This document shows positions 8,226 through 61,066 of a stretch of DNA of 64,000 bases, in pieces (within the stretch, counting starts at the first letter, position 1; each line of letters begins with the position of its first letter). Origin of the DNA: Takakia lepidozioides. Its lineage: Eukaryota; Plantae; Bryophyta. Below the pieces are notes generated by a model that saw only the letters and a list, made by a program, of their open reading frames with translations, did no database searches and was not told the DNA's origin. Where the stretch lies: contig CM060733.1 of the NCBI GenBank assembly GCA_030704615.1, forward strand, positions 61,566,001-61,630,000, written 5' to 3'. The position numbers and the translations under genes were made by a program.

Positions 8226-9194
8226 GGCCAGAGACACAAAGAAGGAGAGAGATACACAAAAGGAAATGAAGGAGGGGAGAGGGGACAGGTATGCAGGTGT
8301 GGTGGTGGCAAGGGTGGTGGGGTGTAACGGTTGTCGCAGACAGCAGCAGAGATCCGGAGAGACGGGGGCCGCCACACTGCCCTTTCCCCTAACCAACCAC
8401 TCTCTAACTAACCCGCCTCCGTTACCCTCCCCCACTTATCTACCTACCCCCTAATCTTCATAATATTTTTCATCGATGACCACCAAAACCACTTTGGAGA
8501 TTTTCATCAATAATCCACTCATTCATTGTCTCCCCTTCATTTTTTTTAATATATATGAAATAACAAACCCTGACCCTAGTAAGGCTCTTTCACAAGGTTA
8601 ATGTTTTTAAGTAAATTTCCTTGTTTTTAATAAGGGTCCCAAATTCTAGCAGAATTCGCCGCGGAATGAAAAGGCTTCCTCCCCTTTTCTTCTGAAGAAA
8701 TAATTAATAAGAAACCACACACTGAAAAGGAACTCCAACACCACACACAAAAAAAAAGGGAACTTAGAGTCTATTTGTTGGAAAGGGAAAAAGAGAACCA
8801 AAAAAAAAAGAGAAAAAGAAAAAAAGAAACCTGAATACATGTACGTAATAAAGTTCATTCGGTGGCATCTCTATTTTAGTGTTACCCAAAACTAGGGTTA
8901 TGATATTTTGATCCTCAGATTTACTTAAATGCATGAGAGCTATGGTCTTTTATTTAAATAAAATAAAATAAAAGGGGGATTGTAGCCCTTTTCACTTTAT
9001 TGAGAGCTATGGTTCACAATGAAAGATTTAGTAAACTTGGCTACAAATGTTTTTATTTATTTAAATCACATTTATGTCATCAAATATATATAATGATAAT
9101 CCAAAGCATGTCAACTTCCCCTTGCCACAATTTTCAGTCATGATAGAAATTTTAGGACCCTGAAATAAATTTGTTGTACAAAGTGGAATGTGTA

Positions 9195-10359
9195 GGGAAT
9201 TCCAAGAAGCCCTTGATGTGAAATGCATTGCAATTCACTTGATCACCCCCCTAAAAGTGCGCAATTCAATTGAATTGCAAGGGCAATTCAATTGAACTGC
9301 TAAAACTAGCTTGAAAACAACCCTAATTTGCAATTCAATTGAATTGTGAATTTGCAAACCAATTGAATTGCGAATTGACAATTCAATTGAATTGTAATAT
9401 ATAATTTTTAAACTTATTTCTGTATATAATATATATATATATATGTATATGTGTATATTCAAATTATACTTATACACGTATAAGAGTATAAGCTAAAAAT
9501 ACATGTTGCCCGTCTATTCTTGCTGCCCCTCTTTCTTGTGCCCTTGAGGAAATTGTGGAGTTGTGAAGCCAACCTCAGCCTCAGCGAGAAAGGGAGAGCC
9601 AAAGAGGGAGAGAGATCAGCAGCTTCATGTGATTCACTGGCAAAAGAAACATGGCTGGCTCTGAAAGAAACAGACAAAATCAAACCTGACAATTGATGAA
9701 AGTCTTCCCCTGCATCATCATGTAGTCCCCTAACACTAGTATCTGGCCCAGGACAAAGAAAACAAATGATATGTTCATCTTCAGAATTATCAAAAATAAT
9801 ATTGTTTCGATACCCTTACAAAGGTATCGTGTTGAAGTTGGGATGTGTGTTCCATGTAAGTTTAATATATCAAACTCTTACACGTTGATACTCTTACATT
9901 GGTATCATGTTTGGTATATGTACATAGCCATATATTGGGACCAACATCCACAAAGAGGGACAATCCCCCTTTAACAAGCGCTTTGTGACTTCCTCTCTCT
10001 CTCTCCCTCTCTCACTCTCCCTTAGGCTTATCTCGGGCTCAAGCCTTACCACGGGCAAAGGATTGACAGACGGACAGCAAGAATAGACGGGCAACATGTA
10101 TTTTTAACTTATACTTTTGTATGCGTATATGTATAATTTAAATATGTACATATATATACAATATATACAGAAATAAGTTAAAAATTATAGATTACAATTC
10201 AATTGAATTGTCAACTCGCAATTCAATTGAATCGTGTGTGCCGACAATTCATTTGAATTGCAAATTAGGGTTGTTTTCAAGCTATTGAATTGCGAACTTT
10301 TAGGGGGGTGATCAAGTGAATTGCAATGCATTTCACATCAAGGCCTTTTTGGAATTCCC
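9195..10359. mobile_element. Non-autonomous DNA transposon/MITE with ~300-bp terminal inverted repeats
   Basis: GGGAATTCC...GGAATTCCC termini flanked by TA on both sides. 9195-~9526 is an imperfect reverse complement of ~10073-10359. The arms contain repeated CAATTCAATTGAATTG palindromes. No transposase. Confidence 0.85.
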
Positions 10360-10633
10360 TAGAACGTGATCAGTGTGCAGTCAAGTGCCTGCAAATTCTG
10401 TGCTTGCTCCCACAAATTTCTCACAAAACTTGTACAACTTGAAAACTGATCATGGTAAACTAATGTGTGCGTGAAGGGCAAGGTCTCAAGCAAAGATCTT
10501 CATGGCAATAAGTTAATGTTAACAATCAAAGCCTAAAGGTCAGCAAGTAGAATATTAGGGCTTGCCGCATGATGCATTGAAGTAAAACATTTGAAATGGG
10601 TTTGAAATTATGTCGATCTAGATCAGAGTGTGT

Positions 10634-14694: not shown

Positions 14695-15545
14695 TGTCGT
14701 GCACCTAAGCATCATGCCGCAACATACATTGTTGCCCAACCGCACTTCCTAGCATATAATCCTAAACAACTATGCCACAATAAGAGAAGTGAGAAAAGAT
14801 GAACCCACTCTATCACTCTATGTCAAGCCAATGGCACCTTTGCTAAAGGACTCCACCATAAAGACTTCACCCACATTCCATCTCAAGTACTAGAGCTATG
14901 GCAGCGAGAGAGGCATCGGGAAGCTCGATAGAGTCTTCCTGAGCCTCATGTGGAGATAAACCTCTCCACGTCCCAAGTGAGGTTCGCCACCTCACTTGGC
15001 ACATGGAACCAAATGAAGTCCTTATGCCAACAAAATATAAATATAAATGTAATTAGCTAAAGATAATTATTTCTACTAACTATGACTAAAACCATGACAA
15101 CTGTTGTACACATACATCGTTGTCCAACCACACTTCATAACATGTAATCCTAAAAAACTATCTCACAATCGCCCTCTTAGCTGGTGATTAGGTCCCCTTA
15201 ACACCGGATAGCTGACAAGTATCCATCCCAATAAGACCATCGTTTGGTCTCCAACCGCACAATTCCCAGTTTCTGAAGTCGCTAGATCAAGAGGCTGGGT
15301 GCAAAAGTAGCCCCATCGTTAGTCGTATGTCTGCAATCCATGATCTTCAATTGAGTATCAAGGGCGTTGAACTCCCGCTAGCTAGACCTTGGATCACTTG
15401 TCAACCTCACCATTGTCATGCCCACTACCTCTGTCTAAGGCATCATCGATACAACCATTCTCCGCTAGGAACCTCCTCAAGTGGAGGTGTCAAACATCCT
15501 ATGTACTACCCCCTTGAGCATTTATCACATACCCAATACTACTGC
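14695..15545 (-). mobile_element. Decayed 3' end of a relative of the 29-41 kb Gypsy element (PHD remnant, 3'UTR, PPT, A-B-A terminus)
   Basis: Minus strand encodes VCDKCSRG*YIGCLTPPLEEVPSGEWL. It shares a 3'UTR motif (GACTAACGATGGGGCTACT) and CCAGCTA(purine run)CGATTGTG with 40330-40490. Segment A occurs at 15102-15167 and 14695-14781, and the element ends ...GCACGACA. Confidence 0.85.
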
Positions 15546-28343: not shown

Positions 28344-29107
28344 CGGAAAAATATTGATCTCACATGGTGTTGTAGCCTAATGAAAGAGTGGACCCCCCCC
28401 CCCCCCCCCCCCCCCCAGATCACGTTGACATCCCATACGTCGCACGCACTGCAGCCTCTAGACGTCTCCGTGTTCAAGCCTTTCAAGTCTACGTTTCGGA
28501 ACTATAGGGACGTGTGGAGTATAGCAAACAAAGGGAAGGCAGCCAAGAAAGAGAATCTAGTGCAATGAGTTTCTTTGGGACTGAAAAAAACATTGTCAGA
28601 AGTGAACATTAAAAAATGATTCTCCACCACAGGGATTTGGCCTCTGAGGCCTACTGCCATGGCAAACAAGATGGGGCCATGATCTAGTTTTGCACAAGAG
28701 CCACCTGCAGCAAATGAAGATCACACCAGCTGCATTGACGATCAGGCAGCAGATGAGGACCAGAGACGAGATCCAGCTATTGAGGAGGTGATTGGCAATA
28801 TGGTTTCCGAAACCCAAGAAGAGTGTATGCACTATTATGTGCAGATGGAGGACGATGAGGAGCCCACAAATGAGGTTGTTGATGAGGATATCCTTGCAAG
28901 CAGCCAGGAGTCTCAACCACTTGCCCCCGATCGGGAACTGTCAATGCTTGCATACACGGGTCCGAACAGTATAGCCTCACCCTACTAGAGGCTCCTGCAC
29001 CCAACATAAGGCGAGTGACTCAAGATGGACAAGTTTTGATCGATTATTCTAAATCCATAATTATGACTAGTGACGACTACGTCAATTCCCTGGAGCAGAA
29101 AGCACTA
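28344..29107 (+). mobile_element. pogo/Fot1-like transposase remnant, left copy of the duplicated target
   Basis: SHTSHALQPLDVSVFKPFK...NIKK.FSTTGIWP is the pogo DDE_1 C-terminal signature. Contains in-frame stops. Nearly identical to 41004-41764. Confidence 0.85.
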
Positions 29108-29453
29108 TGTCAAGTTAAATAAGCACAGTGTGAAAACAGCTAGAATAAAACTAGTTATTTGTATTTAACACTTGGATTTAGGTCAAGTGTTAAATCAGGT
29201 GTCAAGTTTAGTTTGACACCTGGTCCGTCTTATCTTCACGAGAGCGGCAGTCGCGCAGCTCATCTTTCTCGAGTTGAGCCTGCGCGACCGAGCTCCTTCA
29301 TGCGTTTAGATCTGAGTGTGCTTATGATGGGAGTGTAGGTTGTTGTGGGGTGGAGTCCCCATAGCTTGGGGTGCCCCTGGCTCGACTTCTATTTCTAAGA
29401 GTGATGGTTTGGTTTTCATGCTTTGCATCGTGTGTGTCCTTAGCTTTCTTATC
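29108..29453 (+). repeat. Terminal direct repeat segment B1 (346 bp)
   Basis: Identical to 40572-40917 except for two C/T differences seen by eye. Confidence 0.95.
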
Positions 29454-29454
29454 A

Positions 29455-29470
29455 CTCGAGAGAGATGAGC
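29455..29470 (+). promoter_or_regulatory. Putative self-priming primer-binding site
   Basis: CTCGAGAGAGATGAGC immediately after B1 is complementary to GCTCATCTTTCTCGAG at 29258-29273 (15 Watson-Crick pairs plus 1 G-U). No TGG-type tRNA PBS. Confidence 0.65.
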
Positions 29471-30322
29471 TTGCATCTGTGAGTGCCAGAGGTGAGTTTA
29501 GTTTTAGCACTTGTGGTTTTTGTTTTGAAAGTGAGAGAGACGGGGGCTCTATGTTGGTTAAAACTTGAGCTGCAGGTTTCTCTGGTAGATTCTAGCCTTG
29601 CGATTGATCATCAACTTGTCGTTGGTTTTCCTATGCCTGCCCCTAGTTTGCATGTGATCGAAGGCCTTCCTATGTCGGAGGCACCGGTGGTTCTTTACGC
29701 ATATATCAAGGGTCTCCACTTCCGAAAGGCAGATGCGCTCTTGTTGGATAAGTGATCCGGCGGCATTAGTTCGTCAGGTTCACAGTGTCATCGGCGACGA
29801 GCTTGCCTTACGCAGGTGTGGGTTAAAACAGTGCTATCAGGCCAGTAATCCAGGGAATCAACACACGAAGCTTCTGGACTGTGGCTCTTCTCCTGAGAAG
29901 GGGCTGCTGGGGAAGCCAACGTCATAGCTGAGCGCACATTCCAACTGGGTGCTTGGGTTGAGCCCTCCAGCAACGATGCTGACGAGGATGTAAAGGCTAG
30001 AATGGGCAGGGAGCTCCATCGGCTGGTCCTAAGTATAAAGCAAGAAATTGAAGCTGTTTCTTCTTCCCTGCTCTCTTGTTCGCAAAAGCCTGACCTTCGT
30101 CGTCCCCTATGCGCAGATGTGATCACAGAGGCTTGGATACTAAGTATCTGCAGCAGCAATGGATGCCATTAGATTTCCCGTTGCCATGGCCACTGGACGA
30201 CGAGAGGCCCTTGCAGCAACTGCAGAATCAGACAATGATAATTGTTGGTGACTTTGTCAGCTCCACCAAGCTTGCTAAAGCTCTCCTATGTGCTCTGGCC
30301 ACCGTTGCTCCTGTGGAGGTCC

Positions 30323-31050
30323 ATCTGCTGGTTCTAGAGTATCCTCCTGCATGTCCTCCGCCCAAATGCCCAGGGTTTATGATATGGTCGTACAATACAG
30401 ACACTAATCTGTAAAACCAGAATGCCTCCTGCTTGTGCTGGATGAACCGCAGCTGCGACGCAGGCCTTGAGACGCTTTGGTCTGCACTGACAGCCCGCAA
30501 TCGAAGACCGCTACTGTTTCTCCTTCTGCTCACATGCACGCTCCAGTTCTTGGCTTATAATTGCCCGCTGAGCAACAAGCCTGTCGACGCTAACCTATGT
30601 AAGCATGATGATGAGCTCAAACCTGCAGGATATCCCGAGAGAAGCCTTTGTTGGTTGTCCACAACTGTCACCGGCTTCCACTGCCATTGCAACGATGGTG
30701 CGGCCATCCTTGCAGCCATTGCCATCGCTGAACAAAACCCAATTCAAAAACAGCCTGACTTACTTCAGATTTGCCTCGATGATCCTACCTTGGTGGTGTA
30801 GATGTTGGTGGCGGCACGGGATTCGCCACATTGGGGATTGGAAAAACTGTGGATGCCAAGAATGTGAGCATTCTGGATCAATCTCCTCACCAGCTTGCTA
30901 AAGCAAAGGAGAAGGCACCTCTCAAGGAGTGCACGATTATTGAAGGGGATGCAGAGGACTTGCCGTTCGCGACCGACTACGCGGATCAATATGTGTCTGC
31001 ATGAAGCATTGAGTACTGGTCAGATCCACAGCATGGTATCAGGGAGGCAG
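30323..31050. pseudogene. VTE3: Captured fragment of MPBQ/MSBQ methyltransferase (VTE3/APG1) with the 5' part inverted
   Basis: Minus strand ~30719-30323: transit-peptide-like sequence, then RPASQLRFIQHKQEAFWFYR..YDHIINPGH/WAEDMQEDTLEPAD. Plus strand ~30775-31050: LDDPTLVV/DVGGGTGF.TLGI.KTVDAKNV.ILDQSPHQLAKAK.K.PLKEC.IIEGDAEDLPF.TDYAD.YVSA*SIEYW.DPQ.GIREA. Stops and frameshifts present. Confidence 0.92.
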
Positions 31051-31623
31051 TCGAGTTGAAGTGCAGGCTGCCGGTAATCTCCCTCCATGCGAGCTGGAAC
31101 TTACGGGAAACGACCTGAGAGTCAGCAATGATAAGTATGTGGGACGGACACCTGAACAAATGCAGCTGAGGGATGACGAAGCGGCAACGCGGTCCATCAT
31201 GGAGGAGAAGCCGATCGGAGTCCAACAAATCGAGCTGCTCCGTGGTAATGGCGAGGCGACCCCAAAACAACAGAGAACTACATGAACATGTTCGGAACCT
31301 GTAGATAACCTGGGAACAGTTTTTAATGGTGAGAACGTTTTGGTGTTAAAATAAATAAATTAAAAAAAAAAACCTTTTTTTTTATCTAATTCAAATGATT
31401 TAGAGCTTGGTTGGTCATATCTTTGTCAAATGGACTCCGTTTGACTCAGTTTTTGGGAGGATAGCTGCAGAAAGGGGAAATCTACCTACCTAGACTCTTT
31501 TGGGACTCTGCTAAAAATCTATGGAATTTTTAGAGTGTGAGTGTGCCATAAAAGATCCACAATCCTGTCTCTAGAACCTGTGCTGGTCTATATGAGAGAC
31601 AAATTTGTGGATGTACTCCTTGC

Positions 31624-32250
31624 ATGGCTGGGGGAAATGAGGACGTAATTGAAGGGCAGGTCTCTTCTCTTAGCCTGTGCACACAAGGGGACAGGATTTA
31701 TGTTTCCCAAGGAACTCAGACTGATTTGAGTGGAGAACAGTTGGACGAGTTGATTGCATACTGGGAGTCAGGCATTAGCAGTAGACAACAGACTGCTGTA
31801 GTTGGCATTGAGGGCCTCAATATCGCCTTGGACAGTCAGAACTCTGTTGGAGCCAGCAGTTCTGCAGCTGTAGGTGAAATACCAAAGTGGGTGAAAGCTA
31901 GGCTTGGAACACAGCCAAAGACAGCCCCGGGGACCAAGGTGTTCAGCCACAAGGCCGTGGTGTACTGGAGCAGAGGAGCAGGAGCTACACAAGTTTGTGC
32001 AATCAGACATGGTTGCAGCCGGATACGCTCTGCACAGGGCAACCACGAGCGGGGGTTCATCAGCAATGACATGTTTGTTGTGCGTGAAGGAGATGCAGTC
32101 ATTCGCAATGAGGACACCCGCAACCGTCTCAAAGCTTTCGAGTTGAGAGACTATCAGACCCTACCTTTGTTTTCTTTAGTGTTCAGTGAGCGGGAGATAG
32201 GGAGTATTGCTTTGTCTCTACCTGGCAGAAAGAGGAGGAGGGTTGGTTAG
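31624..32250 (+). CDS. Extra 208-aa ORF upstream of gag, function unknown
   Basis: ATG-initiated, uninterrupted, sense-oriented ORF within the element leader, ending in a basic RKRRR tail. Confidence 0.4.
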   Translation: MAGGNEDVIEGQVSSLSLCTQGDRIYVSQGTQTDLSGEQLDELIAYWESGISSRQQTAVVGIEGLNIALDSQNSVGASSSAAVGEIPKWVKARLGTQPKTAPGTKVFSHKAVVYWSRGAGATQVCAIRHGCSRIRSAQGNHERGFISNDMFVVREGDAVIRNEDTRNRLKAFELRDYQTLPLFSLVFSEREIGSIALSLPGRKRRRVG

Positions 32251-32892: not shown

Positions 32893-34494
32893 GTGGAGGA
32901 GGTGCACATTGTGAGTGTCATTACGGAGTTACCCAAGGGTTTTGAGGGGAGTACGGCTACAGGCAGTAACAGTGAGAGTGGGTTCACAAGACGAGGTATT
33001 CGGTTCAGACCACCTTCACCGCCACCCTCAATTACTGTAGAGTCAGACACAGACTCGGAGGCTTCATCAACAGGTGTGCACTTTCATTCGCCATTGTTGT
33101 GGGACGACATGGAGGAGATGTATGGAGCTACCAAGGGGCCTCGTAGGTACTCTGGAGCTGTGGGCACAATCGAGTTGGATGACTTTATCCAGGAGTTCGA
33201 CAGCTGGTGTGATTTGCAGCAGATGCGCAATCCACAGCTATTCACCCCATTCATGGCGTGGAAGGGACTGTTCCAGCATTTGGAAGGCCCGCCTATGGAC
33301 GATTACCACGAGTTCAGGCGAGGACATGAAGCAGAGATTGAGGAGTGGAGGATGTATTGGTCACCTGACTACGTCTCCATTACTCGAGGCACGACGCGAC
33401 CAGTAGCTGCATCAGTACCAATAGCTCCCACTGCCAGCACTAGTAGTGGAGCAGGTAGTGCTGGTACTTCTGCAGGTGGTACCAGTTCAAAAGGTGCTAC
33501 TACTCCTCCTGCCACAACTACAACACATGTGCCTAGATTCAACCCGGTGGTGGAGTTCTTCCAGGAGTTGCGGAGGAACTACCAAGGTGTACGGACAGAG
33601 AAGCTGCGAAGTTTGCAAGACTTCCAGCGCAAACCCAGTGAGAGCCTGCGAGAGGCGTACACTCGTATGAGGCGCTTGATAAGTGTGACCCAAGGGGTTA
33701 CTGAAGCTCAGGCAATCCAGTTTTGGTATGGAATTCTGGACAAGGAGCTCAAGAGAAGGGTGCGAGATGCAACCCTGTTACAAGCAGCCCAACCCACATT
33801 AGCAGATGTGTTTCTGCTGGCTGAGCGGATTGAGCTCAACATGGTGGAGGAGCGAGTTGTTACAATTGGATTTGGCAAGGACATGCCTGTACGGGGCACA
33901 GCTGTCAGCCCACAGGCACAAGGGACTGCCCAACAGCGTGGTCAGGGGGGCAAGGTTGCCCAGCCCAAGTTCCATGGAGCTTACAGGGGACCTCAGGTGC
34001 AGAGGCCCGTGGCATCTTTTGCAGGCCAACAGCAACCAGGGGTGATATGTTGGACATGTGGAGGACCCCATGTCAAAAGAGATTGCCCAGAGAATGGCAG
34101 AAGGCCGGCACAAGCACAGCCTGCACAGTTGCAGTGTGGGCATTGTGGCAAGTATGGGCATGGAGATGCCCAGTGTTATGACTTGCATCCTGAGTTGCGC
34201 CCAGGCCAGTTCCAAGGGAACAATGGTGGCCGGGGGCGAGGTGGACCAGCCCAAAGAGGACGAGGTGGTCGGGCACGAGGTGCAGGCCAAGGGCAAGCTC
34301 CACATGGCCAAGGACGCGGAGGTCAGGGTGTTGACCAAGGCATGGCCAATCGGCTTCAGCAGCTAGAGCAGAGGCTCGCTGCCATGGCTATAGCTCAGGC
34401 GGTACCGGCTCCCAGGCGGGATGGTCCACCTCCTGCTCCTGAGGGAGGAGATATGGGAGGCATGGGATTATGTGCGGAGCAGCACTACCACTAG
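32893..34494 (+). CDS. gag: Gag with two zinc knuckles and an RGG-rich region
   Basis: Retrotransposon-gag-like FQRKPSESLREAYTRM. Knuckles CWTCGGPHVKRDC and CGHCGKYGHGDAQC. The reading continues in the -1 frame (..ESAAAVTR..). Confidence 0.9.
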   Translation: MEEVHIVSVITELPKGFEGSTATGSNSESGFTRRGIRFRPPSPPPSITVESDTDSEASSTGVHFHSPLLWDDMEEMYGATKGPRRYSGAVGTIELDDFIQEFDSWCDLQQMRNPQLFTPFMAWKGLFQHLEGPPMDDYHEFRRGHEAEIEEWRMYWSPDYVSITRGTTRPVAASVPIAPTASTSSGAGSAGTSAGGTSSKGATTPPATTTTHVPRFNPVVEFFQELRRNYQGVRTEKLRSLQDFQRKPSESLREAYTRMRRLISVTQGVTEAQAIQFWYGILDKELKRRVRDATLLQAAQPTLADVFLLAERIELNMVEERVVTIGFGKDMPVRGTAVSPQAQGTAQQRGQGGKVAQPKFHGAYRGPQVQRPVASFAGQQQPGVICWTCGGPHVKRDCPENGRRPAQAQPAQLQCGHCGKYGHGDAQCYDLHPELRPGQFQGNNGGRGRGGPAQRGRGGRARGAGQGQAPHGQGRGGQGVDQGMANRLQQLEQRLAAMAIAQAVPAPRRDGPPPAPEGGDMGGMGLCAEQHYH

Positions 34495-35029
34495 AGCAGG
34501 TGGAGTCTGCTGCAGCCGTGACTCGAGGAGCAGCACGAGTTCCTGAGCCACGAGGTGCAGAGGTGGAATTGGATCCACAGCGTGGGGAGGCAAGCCGTCA
34601 GGCAAGGCTTCCTCAGTCATTCACATTGGCGGAGACTGTGTCGACGCCATCCATGGCACCTAGTTCTCGCCCGACTGTTACCGAGGCGGAGGTTACTATG
34701 CCATTGGGGAGAGCTACACGTGCAGCACTTGACACCTGCTGCCAAGGCTAGTGCGCCGGTGTGTTATTGGGGGCAGCCACCTCTGTGTGTCAGCCCCACT
34801 GTTCTCGGCAACATGATTGCGACGCCGGGGTGAGACCAGCTGCAGTGTTCAGACTAGCAGCAACACTCTGTGAGAGTGGGGAGGTCACTTCATCTTCTGC
34901 GGAGTTAGTGGAAGGTGTAGTGGCAGAGGGATCCTCGGATTTGAGGGTCAAGACTGCCACGGCTGCGCCATGGCAAGTTGCAGCTGCCAGGTTGACGGAG
35001 CTGCCAGCTAGGCCAGCCTTGAGCGCGCC

Positions 35030-35470
35030 ATGGTGACACCTGGAGTTGTCTTGTTAGACAACCAGGGAGGCATTTTCACTTTGAGTGGACCGGCAGGCAA
35101 GAAGTACCGGCCACTGCGGGTCTTGTTGGACTCAGGAGCTCAGCCACTGATGTTGGGCAGAGCTGCTATTGCAGGTTTGGGCCTCATGGAGGCGGATATG
35201 GAGCCTTGTCCTTTCCAGATACAGACATCTCTGGGAGGATCAGAGCAGGCTCGCGGCATGACACGGCATCAGTTGGCTATTAGACTGCAGCCGGATCATC
35301 CTGTAGATGGCTCAGTGATGCGAGCCAAGGCCATTGTGACAGACGCGGTCTCTTACGATGTCCTCGTTGGTGGGGCAGTGTTATACCCCATGGGCTTCAC
35401 CCTGGATTTCTGGGAGGAGTCAGCATCCTACAGGCCTGGATGGCAGTCAGGGGATGGTCGCCGTGCACAG
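35030..35470 (+). CDS. Aspartic protease domain of pol
   Basis: VLLDSGA catalytic motif and YDVLVG..L C-terminal motif. Confidence 0.88.
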
Positions 35471-35839
35471 CTCCCTGTGACATTCATTGGGGGTATTGCA
35501 GCTGCCCAGCGGGGCAAGATGCCAACACTAGCCGCCTTCACAGCTGCAGTTAGTTGGCCTGGAGAGTTGCTGGAAGGCAATGCCCATGCAGAGGATGTGC
35601 CACCTCCAGCAGAGCAGGATGACATGCATGGTACGGCGGAGTTGCCTGCCATGGTTGCTCACACTCCGTTGTGGGGTACGAGCAAGGATTTGCAGCAAGC
35701 TGCTGATGGACGGGTGCAACAAGCTTGGGAAGAAGCTTTTGTACCGTCAGGAGAGGAGGAGAGTGCGGTGATTGCACCAGGGCCACCTCAGTTGTCACCA
35801 TTGGACACCACACCTCTTGTGTGGCAGCGGCCGGATGAA

Positions 35840-36800
35840 GGCATTTGCCTTCTGGACTTGTTTGGCGGGATCAGCACCGGATTGGCTGCTGTGCTACAGG
35901 CAGGTGTGCGGGTAAGGCGTTACCTGTATGTGGAGAGGGATGAGACTGCACGACGCGTCTCACTGCGCCATGTGCTCAGTTGGTACAGCAGTACCCTGAC
36001 TTGTTGCCTGTGTCTGCAGTTCGTGGATACCAACAAGCCTTGCCAGCAGACATTTCCTTGTTGGGGGCGCAAGATTTGGAGCAGGTTGGCTCCATTGATC
36101 TGATAGTGGCAGGTTGGCCCTGCCAAGGGCATTCATCAGCCGGGCATGGCAATGGATTGCGAGACTCGAGGACGGGTCTGTTTTGGGAGATGGTGCGGAT
36201 TTTGCGCTGCTTGCAGCTTCATCAAGCTGTATCTCCAGCATACATCTTGGAGAATGTACCACTGATGGGTGATTCTCGGGCCAGGGTGATGGCCAGTGTG
36301 CATCAAGTCCGGTCGTGGCTTGGGTCAGCAGTGTTGCTGGATGCAGCTGCAGTGGGGTCACGGGCTCATCGTCCACGACTATGGTGGACTAACTTGATGC
36401 CACCCGCACTGCTCAAGCGTGCATTTGATGGGGTGCAGCGGCCAGCACACCTCACCGTGGATGGCATTTTGGACACAGGAAGGCAGTCTCAACGTGTGAG
36501 ACACGATGACCGTTCGCCTTTGGCAGTGGTCAACAGGGTGGGTCAACCACGAGCAGCATTACCTACACTGCTCAGCTTCCCAGGATCCCATGCTTTTCGG
36601 GATGGTGGACCTGGCCTCCTGTGGGATGCTCAGTTGCAGCAGTTAGTGGAGCCTAATGCCGACGAGCGAGAGCGGGCTATGGGGTTTTCCACTGGGACCA
36701 CGGCGGTGCCTTCTCTTTCTGAGGCATCACGTCGTCAGGTGTTGGGGCAAGCAATGGATCTCAATTGCTTGACCTGGATTGTCAGCTTGGCTATGGCTGA
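35840..36800 (+). CDS. DNMT3-like C5 cytosine DNA methyltransferase domain, with one frameshift at ~35975
   Basis: Motif I LLDLFGGISTG, II YVERD, IV DLIVAGWPCQGHS (catalytic Cys), VI YILENV, VIII AHRPRLWWTN, IX ERERAMGF, X RRQVLGQAM. The motifs are in linear order and resemble DNMT3 (SLFDGIATG, AHRARYFWGN, EMERVFGF, RQRLLG). Confidence 0.92.
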
Positions 36801-37089
36801 GCAACGTAGAGTGCGGAGTGCACTTCCCTTGACGGTCTCTCTGCCTACCGAGACGGTACAGGCAGCGAGTGGGGGCGAGCCGGTGAGGACCACGAGGTGT
36901 AGACATCCATGGCACATGTGGGAGGTGCTCGAGGTTCAGAGGGAGTTGGCAGCGAAGGCAGCTGTGATGGATGAGGTTGGGGATTCTTCTCGGGATGAGG
37001 AGGTTCTCAATGATGAGATGATGGGGCAGGATGAGGCCTTGTCATTGACTGAGCAGGAAGGGGGTACTGCTCAAGAGGTTGCAGCATAG

Positions 37090-40000
37090 CAACCACGGGA
37101 CGCGTCCTCTACCTCTAAGCCCACTGGACTTAAGGTTGCAGTTACGGAGGACAATTGGGAGCCTGACATTGGACCCATTGTCACCGGAGGAGAGAGACGA
37201 CGTATACGGCGGTTCCTGAGGGCTTACAGGAATTGCTTTGCCTTCAGTTTGAAGGACTTGGGAGCACTGAAGGGTCAAGAGATCCGTATTGAGTTGGCCA
37301 CTGACACGCCAATCTTTCGGAGACCCTATAGATACAGTGACATGGAGAGGTCTTTGATTCAGATGAGGACTCAAGATCTCTGGGAGGCAGGTTTGGTGGA
37401 GCTCTCTGGTGGAGAGTATGCTTCAGCCACAGTGATGCCAGCTAAGAAGGATGTCTATGGCAATTGGACGGAGAGACGTATGTGCGGTGATTACCGGCCT
37501 GTAAATCGTCAGACCAAGTCCGATAGGTATGCCATGCCAACACCAGAGGAGATCTTTGATGCCATTGGGCATTCCAAGGTCTTTAGCACGTTGGATTTAC
37601 GATCCGGATATCACCAGTTGCCGATCAAGGAGGCGGATAAGCAAAAGACGGCATTCTGGGGGATCAATGAGCACGGGAAGGATTGCCTATACCAGTGGCG
37701 GTTCTTACCATTTGGGCTTAAAAACGCTCCCGCTGAGTTTCAAAGAGTCATGGACAGGATTCTAGCAGGGGTGGAGTTTGCTCGGTGCTACATAGATGAC
37801 ATCATCATCTTTAGTGCTACGGTGGAGGAGCATGAGAGACACCTTCAGGGGGTATTTGAGCGCTTGAGGACGCACGGATTGAAGTTACATCCGGGCAAGT
37901 GCAAGTTTTTCCACAACCAGATTGAGTATCTGGGTCACATGATATATCCTGGAGGATTGGGGGTACAGCAGACTAAGGTAGAGTCCATTGCACAGGTTCC
38001 ACGCCCCACGGATGTGAGCCGAGTTCGAGCTTTCATGGGGTTAGCAAACTATTACAGACGGTTTGTTAAGGGATTTAGTGCCATTGCAAAGGCTCTAACC
38101 AAGCTGACCAAGGTGGACCAGGAGTGGCAGTGGGAAGATGAGCAAGAACAAGCTTTTCAAGAGCTCAAGGCGAGGTTGACCTCGGCGCCCATCTTGAGAC
38201 GACCTATCAGGGGGCGTCCTTTTCAGCTGCATACAGATTGGAGCATGCTGGGGCTTGGAGCGGTGCTCACACAGGTGGATGATGAGGGAAGAGAGTTCGT
38301 AGTGGCTTATGCTAGCCGCTCGAACAATGCTGCAGAGTCTAAGTATAGCTCATATGAGGGAGAATGCTTAGCTGCAGTGTGGGCCGTGGCACACTTCAGG
38401 TGCTATCTATACGGCAATCTCTTCACCCTTGTCACGGATCACCAACCACTCAAGTGGTTGATGGAGTCAGACAAGCTTACGGGGAAGCTTGCACGGTGGG
38501 CACTCATCCTTCAAGAGTATGACTTTCAGGTGGTGCATCGACCGGGTTTGGTCAATCGAAATGCAGATGGGTTGAGTCGCAATCCATGCACGAGCCAGCA
38601 GGATGACACTGGAGCTCGGTGGCATGGTGAGACGGACGAGGAGATGGTGCCCGGATGGCATGCATCTGCATTTCTGTGTATCTTGGCAGCGGAAGGCCAG
38701 GTTGGACCTACAACAGGGATGACTGTAGATCAAGTGTCTGAGGACCCTGAGGCCAGCAATGAGCAAGGTGGCGCCAAAGATATACATGAGGATTCAGTTG
38801 TGTTGGACTACCTCCGCAGTGGAGACACGGCAGCCACTATGACTGCCAAGGAGAGGGATCGGATCCTACAACGAGCCAAGAGGTTCAGGTGGGAGGGGAC
38901 ACACCTGCTCCGAGTGTGGGAGGATGGTCGAGTGAGGATTGTGCCTCACCCAACACAGCGGGCACGGTTAGTGCGGCATGCCCATGAGGAGTTGGGGCAT
39001 TTTGGGGTGCGACGCACTCATAGTCTACTGCAGGGGCAGTATTGGTGGCGTGGTATGCACACAGAGGTGCAACAATTTGTGGCTAGGTGCATGGTGTGTG
39101 ACAGGGTGCGTGCTTCATTCAACGCCCCTACTCCACAATTGCACCCTCTTCCGATCATGGGATTGGGCTACAGGTGGAGTCTTGACTTCGCAGGGCCGTT
39201 GCCACTGACCATGCGCCACAACAAGTACGTGTTGGTGATGGTGGAGCACTTCTCCAAGTGGATTGAATTGGTTCCATTGCCTGATAAGGCTAGTGAGGGA
39301 GCTGCGTATGCATTCTTGGATTGTGTGCTTAGCCGATTCGGTGCTCCAGCTGAGGTACTCACGGACCAAGGGAGAGAGTTCTTGGGGGAGTTTCAGGCTT
39401 TGTGTGACAAGGCCTTGATAGACCACCGCACCACTTCTCGGGATCATCCTGAGGCCGATGGCTTGGCAGAGAGAGTTGTTCAGACAGTAAAGAGGGGTTT
39501 GCGCAAGTATGGCTTGCAGAAGGGACACCTAGGAGATTGGGACCTTCAGTTACCCTGGTTAGCCATGGGCTACAGGTTCAGCAAGCAAGCATCACTTGCC
39601 TCCTTCTCACCATACTTTCTTCTCTTTGGCCGAGAGCCGGATTTGCCTACATCCATTCGCAGAGAAGCTGCTACAGTTCTTAACCTTGACGATCCGGACG
39701 TGTGGGCACGTGCATGTGAGCAGCGTGCAGAGTTGTTCAAGAGAGTCATGCCCATGGCTTTCGAGAACCTTGCCATTGCACAACACCGTGATACGTTGAG
39801 GTATGCTACCATACGTGGTGGGGGCTATCGTCCTGGGGTTCGGAGATTCAACCCTGGTGACTATGTCTATCTGCAGCAGACTGCTCCTACGACCCTGGAT
39901 GTGACTGCAGGACGTGTTATTTTGAGGGTTCGAGAGGTCTTGCCCTCAGGCGTCTTGGTCTTGGAGGGTCGGGATGGCATAACTTGGAAGGACCATGTGC

Positions 40001-40224
40001 GTAATTGTGCGCCATGTCACCTTCCGAATGTCGATGGCAGGATTGACCCAAACCTGGCAGTGGTATCTGCAGGTTTGAGGTGCATGTTGTGTGGGTCTGC
40101 TAAAGGGGCAGCCACCATGCTGGTGTGTGATCGATGCTCTAGAGGTTGGCATATGGGATGCTTGACTCCACCTCTTGAGATGGTTCCGGATGGGGATTGG
40201 TTATGTCCACATTGCATTGGATAG
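37090..40224 (+). CDS. pol: Pol: RT, RNase H, integrase and C-terminal PHD finger (uninterrupted)
   Basis: RMCGDYR, LDLRSGYHQ, LPFGLKNAP, YIDD. RNase H: LHTDWS, YEGECLA, TDH, NADGLSR. Integrase: HHCC, SLDFAGP, TDQG, DGLAER. PHD: C-X2-C..CDRC..H..C..W.CPHC. The frame is open from 37090, in frame with the MTase past one TAG at 37087. Confidence 0.97.
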   Translation, partial: QPRDASSTSKPTGLKVAVTEDNWEPDIGPIVTGGERRRIRRFLRAYRNCFAFSLKDLGALKGQEIRIELATDTPIFRRPYRYSDMERSLIQMRTQDLWEAGLVELSGGEYASATVMPAKKDVYGNWTERRMCGDYRPVNRQTKSDRYAMPTPEEIFDAIGHSKVFSTLDLRSGYHQLPIKEADKQKTAFWGINEHGKDCLYQWRFLPFGLKNAPAEFQRVMDRILAGVEFARCYIDDIIIFSATVEEHERHLQGVFERLRTHGLKLHPGKCKFFHNQIEYLGHMIYPGGLGVQQTKVESIAQVPRPTDVSRVRAFMGLANYYRRFVKGFSAIAKALTKLTKVDQEWQWEDEQEQAFQELKARLTSAPILRRPIRGRPFQLHTDWSMLGLGAVLTQVDDEGREFVVAYASRSNNAAESKYSSYEGECLAAVWAVAHFRCYLYGNLFTLVTDHQPLKWLMESDKLTGKLARWALILQEYDFQVVHRPGLVNRNADGLSRNPCTSQQDDTGARWHGETDEEMVPGWHASAFLCILAAEGQVGPTTGMTVDQVSEDPEASNEQGGAKDIHEDSVVLDYLRSGDTAATMTAKERDRILQRAKRFRWEGTHLLRVWEDGRVRIVPHPTQRARLVRHAHEELGHFGVRRTHSLLQGQYWWRGMHTEVQQFVARCMVCDRVRASFNAPTPQLHPLPIMGLGYRWSLDFAGPLPLTMRHNKYVLVMVEHFSKWIELVPLPDKASEGAAYAFLDCVLSRFGAPAEVLTDQGREFLGEFQALCDKALIDHRTTSRDHPEADGLAERVVQTVKRGLRKYGLQKGHLGDWDLQLPWLAMGYRFSKQASLASFSPYFLLFGREPDLPTSIRREAATVLNLDDPDVWARACEQRAELFKRVMPMAFENLAIAQHRDTLRYATIRGGGYRPGVRRFNPGDYVYLQQTAPTTLDVTAGRVILRVREVLPSGVLVLEGRDGITWKDHVRNCAPCHLPNVDGRIDPNLAVVSAGLRCMLCGSAKGAATMLVCDRCSRGWHMGCLTPPLEMVPDGDWLCPHCIG

Positions 40225-40484
40225 TGGGAGTGGATACAACCATGGAAGGCTAACAAGAAACGCAAGGCCCAGCTACTAGGAGACCTTGAACACACGAGGT
40301 CCTGGCTCAAGTTCACAGATTGCAAGACGGCGACTAACGATGGGGCTACTCTTGTACCCGGCCTCTTGGTCTATAGAGTTTGAGTACAATAGGGACAGTG
40401 ATAGAGGACTTAGTACGGCTGTGGCTATTACATCTTGTAGCTATCTGGAGGTAGAGGGACCTATCCACCAGCTAGGGGGGCGAT

Positions 40485-41004
40485 TGTGGCAGACTACTTT
40501 ATTGTGCATATATGTGTGGTGTGGTTTGGACAGCGATGTAGTTGTGTAGCGATATGTATGCGCACGACAGCTGTCAAGTTAAATAAGCACAGTGTGAAAA
40601 CAGCTAGAATAAAACTAGTTATTTGTATTTAACACTTGGATTTAGGTCAAGTGTTAAATCAGGTGTCAAGTTTAGTTTGACACTTGGTCCGTCTTATCTT
40701 TACGAGAGCGGCAGTCGCGCAGCTCATCTTTCTCGAGTTGAGCCTGCGCGACCGAGCTCCTTCATGCGTTTAGATCTGAGTGTGCTTATGATGGGAGTGT
40801 AGGTTGTTGTGGGGTGGAGTCCCCATAGCTTGGGGTGCCCCTGGCTCGACTTCTATTTCTAAGAGTGATGGTTTGGTTTTCATGCTTTGCATCGTGTGTG
40901 TCCTTAGCTTTCTTATCTATTGTGGCAGACTACTTTATTGTGCATATATGTGTGGTGTGGTTTGGACAGCGATGTAGTTGTGTAGCGATATGTATGCGCA
41001 CGAC
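40485..41004 (+). repeat. 3' terminal A1-B2-A2 repeat block
   Basis: A (~85 bp) at 40485-40569 and 40921-41004 brackets B2 at 40572-40917. The A1|B2 junction is GACA-GC-TGTC. Confidence 0.95.
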
Positions 41005-42193
41005 GGAAAAATATTGATCTCACATGGTGTTGTAGCCTAATGAAGAGTGACCCGCCCCCCCCCCCCCCCCCCGAGATCACGTTGACATCCCATACGTCGC
41101 ACGCACTGCAGCCTCTAGACGTCTCCGTGTTCAAGCCTTTCAAGTCTACGTTTCGGAACTATAGGGACGTGTGGAGTATAGCAAACAAAGGGAAGGCAGC
41201 CAAGAAAGAGAATCTAGTGCAATGAGTTTCTTTGGGACTGAAAAAAACATTGTCAGAAGTGAACATTAAAAAAGGATTCTCCACCACAGGGATTTGGCCT
41301 CTGAGGCCTACTGCCATGGCAAACAAGATGGGGCCATGATCTAGTTTTGCACAAGAGCCACCTGCAGCAAATGAAGATCACACCAGCTGCATTGACGATC
41401 AGGCAGCAGATGAGGACCAGAGACGAGATCCAGCTATTGAGGAGGTGATTGGCAATATGGTTTCCGAAACCCAAGAAGAGTGTATGCACTATTATGTGCA
41501 GATGGAGGACGATGAGGAGCCCACAAATGAGGTTGTTGATGAGGATATCCCTGCAAGCAGCCAGGAGTCTCAACCACTTGCCCCCGATCGGGAACTGTCA
41601 ATGCTTGCATACACGGGTCCGAACAGTATAGCCTCACCCTATTAGAGGCTCCTGCACCCAACATAAGGCGAGTGACTCAAGATGGACAAGTTTTGATCGA
41701 TTATTCTAAATCCATAATTATGACTAGTGACGACTACGTCAATTCCCTGGAGCAGAAAGCACTACTCAAAGTAGAAGCAGTTGCAGCTAAAGAGAAGAAA
41801 CAAGAGGACCAACGCATTGCACGAGAGAAGAGGGCGGCAGAGAAATTAGACAAACAAGAGGCAATTCGGATCAGAAAGGCAGAAGCTGCAGCCAAAAAAA
41901 CGTATGATGCACAGTGCACAAACAAGGCATTGGGGGAGTATGGCAATCGCCTGCATGCACTGTTGAAGTCAGGAGGGCCTATCAGGCACCATGCCCCGTT
42001 CTATGGATTGACACCCCTAATCTGCAGGCATAACAAGGCCATGGCAATACGACGACGTCGAGCAAAGAAGGCAGGTGAAGATAGTAGCCAGTTTGTCACT
42101 GTGGCTCCTACCTGGGCACACGGAGAGCAGTTACGTGGGGTCCCGCACTTGACACCATTGAGGAGTGTGATCGGGCAGCGAGAGGCAGCATAA
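41004..42193 (+). mobile_element. pogo/Fot1-like transposase remnant, right copy and C-terminal continuation
   Basis: Repeats 28344-29107, then reads on into IMTSDDYVNSLEQKALLK..., a coiled-coil C-terminus. Element ends not identified. Confidence 0.85.
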
Positions 42194-44536: not shown

Positions 44537-45604
44537 AGACAAGCTGATTTCCATGCCACAAGGTCGAGAAAGTCTAGTGATGGTGGAAAGACATCAGACT
44601 GCACTTGTGATTCTGGTGTGGATGGTCAAGCTCCTCCAAAACTGGATGAGTGTAACTCTCCGTGAGCCTGATTAGAGGGGCGGCTATGTCATACACAAGC
44701 TTGTTTAACATTTGTAAGTTGGACACGTTTGTACATTCCTCATTGTGCTACAAGCAATAGACAAGCTGATTTCCATGCCACAAGGTCGAGAAAGTCTAGT
44801 GATGGTGGAAATATATCAGACTGCACTTGTGATTCTGGTGTGGATGGTCAAGCTCCTCCAAAACTGGATGAGTGTAACTCCCCGTGAGAGCTTGTAAGTT
44901 GGACATGTTTGTACATTCCTCATTGTGCTACAAGCAATAGACAAGCTGATTTCCATGCCACAAGGTCGGGAAAGTCTAGTGATGGTGGAATGATATCAGA
45001 CTGCACTTGTGATTCTGGTGTGGATGGTCAAGCTCCTCCAAAACTGGATGAGTGTAACTCTCCGTGAGCCTGATTAGAGGGGCGGCTATGTCATACACAA
45101 GCTTGTTTAACATCTGTAAGTTGGACATGTTTGTACATTCCTCATTGTGCTACAAGCAATAGACAAGCTGATTTCCATGCCACAAGGTCGGGAATGTCTA
45201 GTGATGGTGGAAAGATATCAGACTGCACTTGTGATTCTGGTGTGGATGGTCAAGCTCCTCCAAAACTGGATGAGTGTAACTCCCCGTGAGCCTGATTAGA
45301 GGGGCGGCTATGTCATACACAAGCTTGTTTAACATCTGTAAGTTGGACATGTTTGTACATTCCTCATTGTGCTACAAGCAATAGACAAGCTGATTTCCAT
45401 GCCACAAGGTCGGGAAAGTCTAGTGATGGTGGAATGATATCAGACTGCACTTGTGATTCTGGTGTGGATGGTCAAGCTCCTCCAAAACTGGATGAGTGTA
45501 ACTCTCCGTGAGCCTGATTAGAGGGGCAGGTATGTCATACACAAGCTTGTTTAACATCTGTAAGTTGGACATGTTTGTATATTCCTCATTGTGCTACAAG
45601 CAAT
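44537..45604. repeat. Tandem array of five units (222, 180, 222, 222, 222 bp)
   Basis: Units start AGACAAGCTGATTTCC at 44537, 44759, 44939, 45161 and 45383. Unit 2 lacks 42 bp. Few substitutions between units. Confidence 0.95.
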
Positions 45605-45845
45605 AGAGCCCAAAGTGACTTGCACAAATGTTGTTGACAGCTACACCAGCATTCCACAAGAGAACCTGCCAAAGTGTTGATGTTCGTCAAGTTTCAGGCA
45701 CCAAGGTCAACCAGGGAGCATGAAACAGCTCGGGAATTCCTTTAAGATCCGTCTTATTGGTGGGACAACCGAGATGGCAAGGCGTGGGTTTCTTCTTTTG
45801 ATGTGAAGGAGTTTGTCTCGTCTTCAATGGTTGTTCCTGTCTGGA

Positions 45846-54162
<8,317 letters not shown>

Positions 54163-58084: not shown

Positions 58085-61066
58085 TATTTCAGAGAAGTGG
58101 TGTCGTGATGATGTTGTGCTTGAGCATGACATTAGAAACATCATGGACAAGCTCGCATGTGAGACTTTCAAGCGACATCAGGATGAGGGGACCAGTCTGA
58201 AGATGTGGAAGGAGGCCCAGCCCCAGAGTGTTTTCTTCTATCAAGAGGACACGCCTGATGCCCCTGCTGGAGGAACACGGCGCGGCAATGTCGACCTCAA
58301 ATTTGCCATTGGCATTCAAACAGAATTTTAGAAAAAAAACAATGCTCCAATGGATGACAAACGTATCGTCTCTTGTGATGCGACCTTCGGAACGAATGAA
58401 CACAAGGTGTGTGGAATCGACAGCGTGGACTCCTGGGAGCATGAGAGCATAGCATCTTTCACTGTGAAGGGGATCAGTGGGGAGCAGGGGATCAGTGGAG
58501 AGCAGGGGCACAGGGGGAGCATAGCCTTATCCGATGTGTAGGGGATCACGACATTGGGTCATCACCAGTGACCTATTAATCCCCCTATCGGATTCGACGC
58601 CACGGCTGCCTCAGCCCATTAGGGGACTAGACACATAGGCCAAACTCCATTTTGTATACTGCTGTGTATATATTGGGACCATTTTGGGACCATGACGTGT
58701 ACTTGTGTGATTCGTAGTGAGGGGTGCGCCCGCAGGAGGGAAGACAACTTAGCAAATGCATGCCTTGGGGGGTTATAGAGAGGAATGATGGAGGGATGGT
58801 CTCCTTCCAGGGGATCATGGCATAGCCCATAGGGGGGATCACATAATACTAAAATGAGAACAGAAGGGGTTGCAGGGTTCAGGGTTCACCTCTTGTGATT
58901 TCTTGTCATTAATTTCAGTAAAATGTTTCGCCTATTTTCAAAACAAAAGTACTTACATTGCACATTTTCGTCTTTGTGTGCAGTATGCCATGTATACTCT
59001 TATGGTCTTCGACATTTGGTTGAACGACATCCTTGTTGCATACATAATATCTTCAAGAAACAATGCCAACGATTTGTCAAGTTGGATGTTGGCTCTTCGT
59101 CAAAGGCTCCAGGCCGATCAGCCGGATTGGCATCCCAACGCATTCATTGTGGACAATGCCGATGCTGAGATTAACGCCATTCGGTTTGTTCTCAATCCCT
59201 CCCCCCTACCAATAAACTTCCATTGTCTGCTTCTGCATGAGGGGAGCACTAAGAGGGTAACAGTCACAATGTTTCCTGCAGGGGGATCCGTGTAGAGGGG
59301 ACCAAGAGTGTAGGGTTGCATGGGGGATCAGTGAAAGGGGATCGATTATGGGATCAGTGATCAGGGGACCAGGAGAGGGTACCAGGGGATCAGGAGCAGC
59401 AGATCTCACATCCGACAATGATCGAGGGTCCAGGAGTCCAAGGATGCATGGGGGGATCAGTGAAAGGGGATCAATTATGGGATCAGTGATCAAGGACTTC
59501 GGACACTCAGGGTACCAGGGGACCAGGACCAGCAGATCTTTGATCTGACAATGTGATTTTTATCGGCCTTTCATTGGCCATAGGAGGGCTCATGTATTCC
59601 CCTTTCATTGCCTTCACTGGATCTGCATGAGGGGTTTCAGTCAAAGGGGATCAGGGCATCAGGGAATCAGGGGTTTAGTGAAAGGGGATCAGGGGATCAC
59701 GAGCAGGGAGCACTTATCAGAGATTCATACTTGTATCTGATTTTGTGGTGGTCCTGTTGTGGTATTGTAGTGGCCTTGCTAATGCCGTTTTGTGGATGGT
59801 TCAGGCATACGTTCCCAGGGGTGCCGGTTTTCCTGTGCCTTTGGCATGTTCGAAGGGCCTGGCTGAGGAATGCCATCGAGAAGATCAAAGGATGCCCAGT
59901 TAAGGGCCGATGTATTGCAAGGTATGGGTGACATCATGTACAATAAAGGTGGTCCCATTGGTGACTCTTCGCAGGCCTGGGCTGTGTTTAGATTGTATGA
60001 GTTACAAACAAAGTATCCCGCAGCTAAGCTGTTCTTCTTGTATATCCACAAATGGTGGATCCCGAAAGTGGACATGTGGATTGTTGGAGCTCGAAATATC
60101 CCACATGCCGGACAAGATACGAATGTTGTAATTGAAGCGTACCATGCGAACCTGAAGAGGCGCTTGTCCCAAACAAGACAGAAAATGGACGGGCGTCGAC
60201 TGGATTGGTTGGTCTACATCCTAACAGGTAGCCTCCTCACACATTACTGGTATATTTCAACCTTGAAAGTTGAAGGGTTCATTCGCAACTCTAGGATGGA
60301 ACATTTCGTGCAAAATGCGGTGTGGATGGCTGGGCAGATACCGGAATCCAACGTGGAATTGCCCGAGCGCACGGGGGATCCTACGAAGGTAAAAAACATG
60401 TCTTCTCCAGGCACTGTATACACTATATGCAATCCAGCATCCGAGTGGGCTTGTTGTGACTGCCCTAACGCCATGGAAGGGAACCTATGCAAGCACCAAG
60501 TGAAGGTGTTCAAGATGTTGCGGCCACAGGTACCAGAGGGTTGAATTGTCCGAACTTGTGGAACACGACTTGGGACACTCAATGGGGGCATGGCCAAGCT
60601 GCTCGACCCTGATCCCCTGTCCGCTGCGGAGCCCCCGTGTGACACAGATCCCATGTGTGGCATTGACCCCCCTGCACCAGACACAGTTCCGGTTGGCAAT
60701 GTCTTGGGGGAGCAGCAGCCCCGCCATGAATCGTAGGCAACTGTCATGAAGGCCATCGCAGAGGAGATGCTCGGTTTGGAAGTCTGTGTGAAAGGTAACA
60801 TGGCCCTTCATAACCATCTTTTGAGTGACCTTCGTGTCACGAGAGGAAAGCTAGCACAAATGGCCACACGCATGGCTGCGGGTCTTCTCCTCCCACATCT
60901 TGTAAGAAGGTTTGAACGTGTTCAGGATGGATCGGGAATGAGTTTGAAGAGAAGAAAGGATTGGGTAGAGGTTCGTCTTGGATCCAAAAGAGTCTCAGCA
61001 ATCCCTCCATCTTCGTCTATTTTGCATGCACTTTGTCAAGTTGGGCGTCCCAGATTGAAGGGTTGA
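58085..61066 (+). mobile_element. Decayed Mutator-like (MULE) transposase with SWIM finger
   Basis: Spliced remnants: FAIGIQT..., CDATFGTN, YTLMVFD, FIVDNADAEINAIR, FP....LCLWHV, TNVVIEAYH, SWIM CDCPNAMEGNLCKH. Stops and frameshifts present. The element probably spans ~55930 to beyond 64000. Confidence 0.85.

Follow-up and report, generated by a model that had tools for sequence, protein, structure and literature searches.

The closest described system is KnitGypsy-Dnmt3 of Klebsormidium nitens, a retroelement that carries a non-permuted Dnmt3-like domain under purifying selection between protease (PR) and reverse transcriptase (RT) and that combines Gypsy domains with DIRS-like repeats (PMC5890265, legend of Fig. 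4c; this and the other papers named here are cited from their accessible parts). In that accessible text, seven land plants were surveyed with Marchantia and Sphagnum not among them, and the reviewer file argues from one frame shared with RT. Two further sources, PMC12344493 and a 2026 preprint (bioRxiv 10.64898/2026.05.21.726589), speak of 'streptophytes' and may cover land plants. The preprint describes EpiLTRs, LTR elements that likewise encode both a chromatin reader and a cytosine methyltransferase; there, however, the reader is a chromodomain, the cytosine enzyme is DNMT4-related and an adenine methyltransferase is also present, whereas the element found here has a DNMT3-like enzyme and a PHD finger.

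We analyzed a stretch of 64,000 nt of Takakia lepidozioides DNA (in the following called the window) and found an element that is almost certainly a Ty3/Gypsy retrotransposon with a DNMT3-like C5-methyltransferase (MTase) between protease and RT and an integrase (IN) tipped by a PHD finger (Table 1). Unlike KnitGypsy-Dnmt3 and the one-frame MTase-RT case of PMC5890265, the window lineage has a land-plant host and a conserved stop in readthrough context between MTase and RT; a PHD finger, readthrough, self-priming, the junction and target duplications find no mention in the accessible text on KnitGypsy-Dnmt3. An initial reading of this DNA from its letters alone (the sequence-only reading) was right that MTase retroelements are known from Klebsormidium, but it scored the novelty too high: as far as the accessible text goes, the lineage is described there, and LTR elements with MTase plus chromodomain appear in the 2026 preprint. 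The literature covered, outside of which most subscription papers lie, yielded no account of the family in land plants, of readthrough in its members or of the way it integrates. Our comparison suggests that a land-plant lineage, a likely readthrough putting the enzyme on the Gag side and ends pointing to integration at an internal junction are new. The whole scenario, in which a dead, recent copy related to KnitGypsy-Dnmt3 belongs to a family using readthrough, a packaged enzyme that would methylate cDNA and an integrase that would open an internal palindromic junction, appears to us reasonably probable.

The domain order Gag-PR-RT-RNase H-IN with a DDE integrase is that of Ty3/Gypsy LTR retrotransposons, but the two full identical terminal LTRs expected of such elements are absent, and a split A..B-A-B arrangement is found instead. 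The Gag start agrees with Marchantia homologs and the frame of RT, RNase H, integrase and PHD finger is open over 1044 codons. Alignment to unbroken Marchantia proteins placed frame shifts near 34.45 kb, 35,018 and 35,973. One open reading frame (35012-36103) holds the protease and MTase motifs I-II and another one (35944-37089), in a different frame, motifs IV-X, with the break at about 35,973, contrary to the sequence-only reading, which had put the domain in frame with the protease. Because of these frame changes the window copy is dead. The breaks are not a family trait, since at these positions the other copies, all taken from public contigs, show length differences; the breaks may be particular to this copy, be shared by its subfamily or be assembly errors. 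All well-supported coding length differences to other copies lie within 1.5 kb (34469-35973), with none in RT-IN among the 12 of 75 listed, and this clustering may reflect assembly errors or a defective subfamily. The near identity of A1 and A2 (Table 1), of B1 and B2 (0/86 differences) and of the flank copies (3/690 aligned positions outside the C-run) indicates that the insertion is recent. Summed contig depth, which is no copy number, was far greater within the element than in its flanks. A captured, broken fragment of a UbiE-family methyltransferase, which we take to be VTE3-like, is a low-copy part of the element (low summed depth). It lies in a leader stretch (29800-31300) of low-copy captured host sequence, part of which may be inverted, as in one contig position 30365 is linked to 30798 of the opposite strand. 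A 232-codon frame in the high-depth leader (31552-32250) gave no match in Pfam and none in the fetched loci or proteins. An older fragment with the PHD end and 3' region of the same element family, 68% identical, lies on the minus strand at 15107-15533.

Table 1. Features of the element and its flanks in the window (positions as in the 64,000-nt stretch)
Feature	Positions	Strand	Details
Host flank X	28344..29107	+	764-bp target duplication, aberrant for family
Repeat A1, left end	29108..29454	+	starts TGTCA; 2 differences to A2 in 346
A1 stretch complementary to primer-binding site; predicted RNA 5' end and self-primer	29257..29273	+	17 pairs
Primer-binding site (PBS), self-priming type	29455..29471	+	directly 3' of A1
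Captured broken UbiE-family small-molecule methyltransferase fragment	30783..31115	+	PF08241 E=2e-9, PF13649 E=9e-10
Gag, two zinc knuckles	33109..34494	+	PF03732 weak, E=0.001; 58% to P0003
Aspartic protease and spacer	35012..35839	+	DSG at 35129; from sequence; aligned homologs match Asp_protease_2
MTase N-part, motifs I-II	35840..35973	+	protease frame; frame break at end
MTase motif I (DLFGG)	35855		
MTase motif II	35927		
MTase C-part, motifs IV-X	35974..36810	+	catalytic Cys, Glu, Arg-x-Arg
MTase motif IV (PC)	36118-36123		
MTase motif VI (ENV)	36250-36258		
MTase motif VIII (RxR)	36370-36378		
MTase motif IX	36664		
MTase motif X	36742		
In-frame stop with CAR-YYA context	37087..37095	+	predicted readthrough signal
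RT-RNase H-integrase, open	37090..40224	+	D-D-E at ORF residues 699, 759, 794
PHD finger, integrase C-terminus	40081..40215	+	KDM5-PHD1/CHD4/PHF21A/BAZ2 type; PF00628 E=2.5e-10
Polypurine tract (PPT)	40474..40480	+	directly 5' of B1
Repeat B1	40485..40569	+	ends CACGACA
Internal junction (J): B end, 2-nt spacer, A start	40563..40576	.	palindromic; predicted integrase attachment site
Repeat A2	40572..40918	+	
Repeat B2, right end	40919..41004	+	terminal family base missing here
Host flank X, second copy	41004..41764	+	

The C5-MTase motifs listed by the sequence-only reading, from I to X, were all recovered in sequence and alignment, in linear order and without the circular permutation of DRM-type enzymes, and a profile search returned DNA_methylase (PF00145, E=2e-13). 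The domain is intronless and has its catalytic residues. By sequence its nearest solved relatives are DNMT3A/B (E 2e-7), with HhaI behind (2e-4). A fold model of the C-part only (without motifs I-II), built from the alignment (pLDDT 83.7; 32.5 from a single sequence), is again nearest to DNMT3A/B (Foldseek E 5e-11, TM about 0.57). Residue conservation was counted over 217 homologs, of which the aligned number varies by position: the catalytic Cys is kept in 193/195, the Glu of ENV in 200/202 and the two Arg of motif VIII in 197/207 and 203/207, whereas the Pro preceding the Cys is kept in only 104/194. The earlier view of a DNMT3-like, element-borne and conserved enzyme in a land plant is supported. 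Across copies the domain is under purifying selection with a dN/dS of about 0.1: we obtained 0.09-0.12 for the window versus nine family-1 loci, a comparison in which dS approaches saturation, and L046 and L047, a pair that is not saturated, gave 0.13. Decayed copies of family 1 compared with each other reach 0.50, similar to RT (0.47). The domain is not neutral cargo. In a sequence atlas, the closest matches were clusters of phage C5-methyltransferases and a single streptophyte cluster, which is a lead only; 17 loci on viral contigs with short, distant methyltransferase matches were left out.

Next to 216 cluster representatives that pass E 1e-30, we examined 75 longer homologs, 21 of which are named bryophyte proteins (17 from Marchantia polymorpha, 2 from Calypogeia fissa at up to 74%, and 2 from Sphagnum). 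These 21 are bryophyte gene models, and DNMT counts taken from bryophyte annotations are too high because they include domains that belong to elements. An integrase search added Riccia, Coleochaete, Closterium, Klebsormidium and chlorophytes; in the Coleochaete record we saw RT-IN-PHD (79%) and no methyltransferase. The K. nitens protein KFL_009030040 has PR-MTase-RT-IN in a single frame, with 45% identity in the MTase and 49% in RT-IN. In trees of MTase and of RT (midpoint-rooted, including K. nitens and the window, without a host DNMT3/DRM outgroup) the window is sister to Calypogeia, Marchantia and family 1 (97/95; FastTree 97). When matches are summed, the Sphagnum proteins come nearest to family 1 (60-71%), and for family 2 the nearest is a second Calypogeia element (59-62%). 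Domain and RT lie in one open frame in family 2 and in K. nitens, while in the window lineage they share the frame with a stop in between. The chlorophyte-type relatives (Scenedesmus is named; P0215, P0218, P0210, P0298, P0302, P0205, P0211 and L095) carry the MTase between RNase H and integrase, and therefore the domain has moved within the polyprotein. For the REXdb clades Phygy, Selgy and Chlamyvir, the accessible descriptions mention neither PHD nor methyltransferase, and a Pfam scan of our element showed neither the adenine methyltransferase nor the chromodomain of EpiLTRs.

We observed the A..B-A-B layout in 11 distinct insertions including the window; a one-off circle insertion as the origin of the split ends was rejected, as the layout is family-wide. 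Eight loci (L024, L028, L030, L040, L042, L057, L082 and L088) show a short form, A-internal-B without A2-B2, which may come from insertion of a one-repeat circle or from later recombination between B1 and B2. The element ends are TGTCA...CGACA, and an exact 4-bp duplication flanks six of the nine copies with both ends (L030, L048, L055, L062, L069 and L074), the others being L040 (3 of 4 bp), L060 and the window. The 764-bp duplication and the lost right-end base of the window fit a one-ended, host-repaired insertion and not the 4-bp rule of the family. At the B1/A2 joint the two ends of the element abut with a 2-nt spacer and form a palindrome, also in L046 and L049, and CACGACA-NN-TGTCA occurs about 90-190 nt past the PPT in all PPT-bearing lineages, these two loci included. 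The same A1...B1-A2-B2 split direct repeats with abutted ends at B1/A2 are described for Ngaro, PAT and VIPER (PMC6681497), but our element has a DDE integrase, a protease, a PPT and 4-bp duplications and no tyrosine recombinase: the five long plus-strand frames scanned gave no match to such an enzyme, and the integrase is of the rve type. Complementarity of the PBS to the element's own repeat is shared with the self-priming chromoviruses Tf1 and Tcn1 (PMC6317226), which unlike our element have a chromodomain and lack PHD finger and split ends; after the integrase, where Tcn1 has its chromodomain, we found no chromo match and the PHD finger instead. The self-priming pairs of the window exceed the best of 20 shuffles (12 pairs), and its fold has z=-5.3; up to 20 pairs are found in family 1 and 12 in family 2. 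Each of the three families pairs through a sequence of its own. Of 26 repeats tested, only 12 beat all shuffles.

From this structure we propose the following route. The RNA would start in mid-A1 and prime itself on the site following A1. Most ribosomes would stop after Gag-PR-MTase, and a few would read UAG-CAR-YYA and yield RT-RNase H-IN-PHD. As the PPT precedes B1 and the PBS follows A1, reverse transcription from PPT to PBS should give a linear cDNA with a full B-J-A repeat at each end, which would make A2/B2 the joint of those ends, formed from the free cDNA ends before or after integration. The integrase would then cut J (CA/NN/TG) of the left repeat and insert the DNA with a 4-bp duplication, resulting in A-internal-B-J-A-B, and the PHD finger would hold the complex on H3 tails that carry no modification. 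That the integrase opens end-joined cDNA at J is in our judgment probable. Retroviral integrase can likewise cut abutted palindromic ends at circle junctions, after which the DNA is able to integrate (PMC1905944, PMC4372172); in retroviruses this is a side route at newly joined ends, whereas here the site is inherited within the repeat and apparently normal, so that the end structure suggests a DDE integrase routinely using a circle-junction-like site. Standard LTR finders would mis-call such ends. A simple free circle would offer two identical junctions, yet the mirror product A-B-J-A-internal-B was seen in 0/25 distinct left ends, which speaks against it; methylation of one of the junctions might account for this. 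Seven of the eleven A/B joints are precise or nearly so and four are imprecise (L074, L060, L054 and the window), which could be due to later mutations.

As an alternative, the split repeats might be copied from an RNA running through A2-B2 in a DIRS/Ngaro-like manner, for which no end-joined circle is needed. The repeat order is indeed that of Ngaro, PAT and VIPER (PMC6681497), most A/B joints are uniform within a family and, of the two products that a circle could give, just one is observed. However, the PPT immediately 5' of B1 and the PBS immediately 3' of A1 mark out B-J-A as a repeat of the standard kind, B2 would stay uncopied if strong-stop DNA landed on A2, and two loci resemble end-joining, namely L074, in which most of B is lost at the joint and the exact 4-bp duplication is intact, and L054, whose rearranged context still holds 11 nt of the PBS. 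We therefore consider copying through A2-B2 unlikely and prefer opening of the end-joined cDNA at J.

With respect to the function of the enzyme, new cDNA would be its likeliest target, a reading to which we give slightly better than even chances; Gypsy polyproteins are processed by the protease, and a position in the Gag polyprotein implies packaging in LTR elements. Methylation of cDNA was also proposed by de Mendoza 2018 (PMC5890265). Depletion of CpG/CHG as a sign of self-methylation was rejected, since the element (CpG observed/expected 0.42-0.55) equals the host background (0.49-0.50). The solved domains nearest to the PHD finger are those of CHD4, PHF12, KDM5A/B (PHD1), ATXR5, DPF3, PHF21A and BAZ2. 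Several of them are readers of unmodified H3 tails, and the PHD finger of the element lacks a Trp at what we take to be its position in the H3K4me3 cage. The PHD finger would steer the integrase and has no anatomical tie to the MTase in the window lineage. This bears on the claim of the sequence-only reading that PHD reader and MTase writer form a self-contained unit, and on the related possibility that both cooperate at the insertion site. The two domains are co-retained from chlorophytes to mosses, Scenedesmus-type elements have the MTase between RNase H and integrase, and the PHD finger resembles readers of unmodified H3, which the ADD domain of DNMT3 itself also reads. The anatomy is against it: in the window lineage the conserved stop and RT-RNase H part the MTase from IN-PHD, the bulk of the MTase would arise in products that lack IN-PHD, and processing by the protease would separate them, which makes such cooperation improbable. 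We regard as similarly doubtful that the MTase silences the element itself once inserted or has RNA as its target, and not packaged cDNA; these roles are raised in the discussion of PMC5890265, and in the same paper yeast with the K. nitens domain showed no methylation, a result called inconclusive there that also counts against the predicted activity on cDNA, but fold and motifs are those of DNA C5 enzymes of the DNMT3 group, besides the packaging implied by the Gag-polyprotein position. Methylation of the new cDNA is thus preferred. Marchantia offers a genetically tractable host in which the role of the captured enzyme, left open in 2018, can be tested. In a bolder reading, a lineage found across green plants would regularly insert end-joined cDNA after a cut at the inherited palindrome, and its Gag-level MTase would act like the modification part of a restriction-modification pair, methylating the conserved CG/CHG of the junction so that the integrase cuts one of the two copies; if true, this would explain the exclusive A-internal-B-A-B product, but we estimate it to be very unlikely.

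The placement of the MTase 'inside Pol' by the sequence-only reading is half right: past one TAG (37087-37089) the domain is in frame with RT-RNase H-IN-PHD as stated, and in the window lineage this conserved stop parts Gag-PR-MTase from RT-IN-PHD. Decay as the origin of the TAG was rejected, because it is invariant in other host copies and stop+CARYY is conserved across loci. Positions 37085-37096 show no variant of at least 3% in contigs of four runs from three samples, while 37083, 37084 and 37097 vary. We looked for stop+CARYY in the 360 nt that follow the domain (background 0.12 per such stretch) and could score 74 of the 80 fetched loci plus the window, leaving out five that were too short and two without domain end; the loci are partly non-independent (L045=L048, L058=L060, L063=L065). 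Stop+CARYY follows the domain in 30/36 family-1/window loci and in 4/4 of a third lineage (48-53% identity), compared to 0/33 in family 2 and 0/1 for the chlorophyte-type locus. The full CAR-YYA is found in the window, L046, L047, L049 and L075 and CAR-YYC in family 1. The second codon after the stop encodes Pro, Leu or Ser with the YY bases kept, and therefore the constraint is on the bases. The first Met of the RT frame in the window is residue 85, within conserved RT sequence, and many close homologs terminate 55-180 residues past the MTase domain. A hairpin 3' of the stop reaches z below -2.8 in four of eight loci, not in family 1, and the upstream control also gives -3.5.

UAG-CAR-YYA is the readthrough consensus of TMV and works with UAA too (PMC3542737), and a CAR-YYA-type stop likewise governs the downstream polymerase frame in MuLV, Tca2, SIRE1 and TMV (PMC3542737, PMC2194720). 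Compared to these stop-separated elements, the stop here follows Gag-PR-MTase and puts an enzyme on the abundant side. That the stop is read through in a programmed way, giving much Gag-PR-MTase and little RT-IN-PHD, is therefore in our view very likely as judged from the sequence, and owing to the TMV-type signal the enzyme is likely part of the abundant Gag-PR product and cut off from IN-PHD. Family 1 speaks against this to some degree, as it matches the consensus less well (CARYYC, not CARYYA) and has an in-frame ATG two codons on. This ATG would suit a plain stop with RT-IN made by re-initiation or from a spliced or separate RNA, and layouts with Gag-PR and RT-IN in two frames exist in other plant LTR groups (PMC6317226); however, the ATG is absent in the window, L046, L047, L049 and L075, CARYY persists across saturated synonymous distances and no well-supported joint removing the stop was found among the contigs (one contig has a 37-nt skip), so that we consider a plain stop very improbable. 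A contig of one run, of which it is uncertain whether it is RNA or DNA, is unspliced across the stop. If the readthrough signal works as predicted, particles would contain more of the enzyme than of RT and integrase, and this predicted excess favours cDNA as its substrate.

Besides the element, the window contains on the minus strand a host JmjC demethylase gene (49550-54147) that is JMJ706-like and 52-60% identical to proteins of seed-free plants and gymnosperms; in a quick tree it groups with Sphagnum (SH-aLRT 91, below the star of the tool), which points to a land-plant host and most likely to a moss. A gene of the tubulin-tyrosine-ligase family lies on the minus strand at 2967-6448. We also observed a non-autonomous DNA-transposon-like element with long terminal inverted repeats (9193-10361), a MULE-like transposase fragment with a SWIM finger (59867-60544) and two tandem arrays (44537-45682 and 45983-46428) of about 222 and 237 bp.
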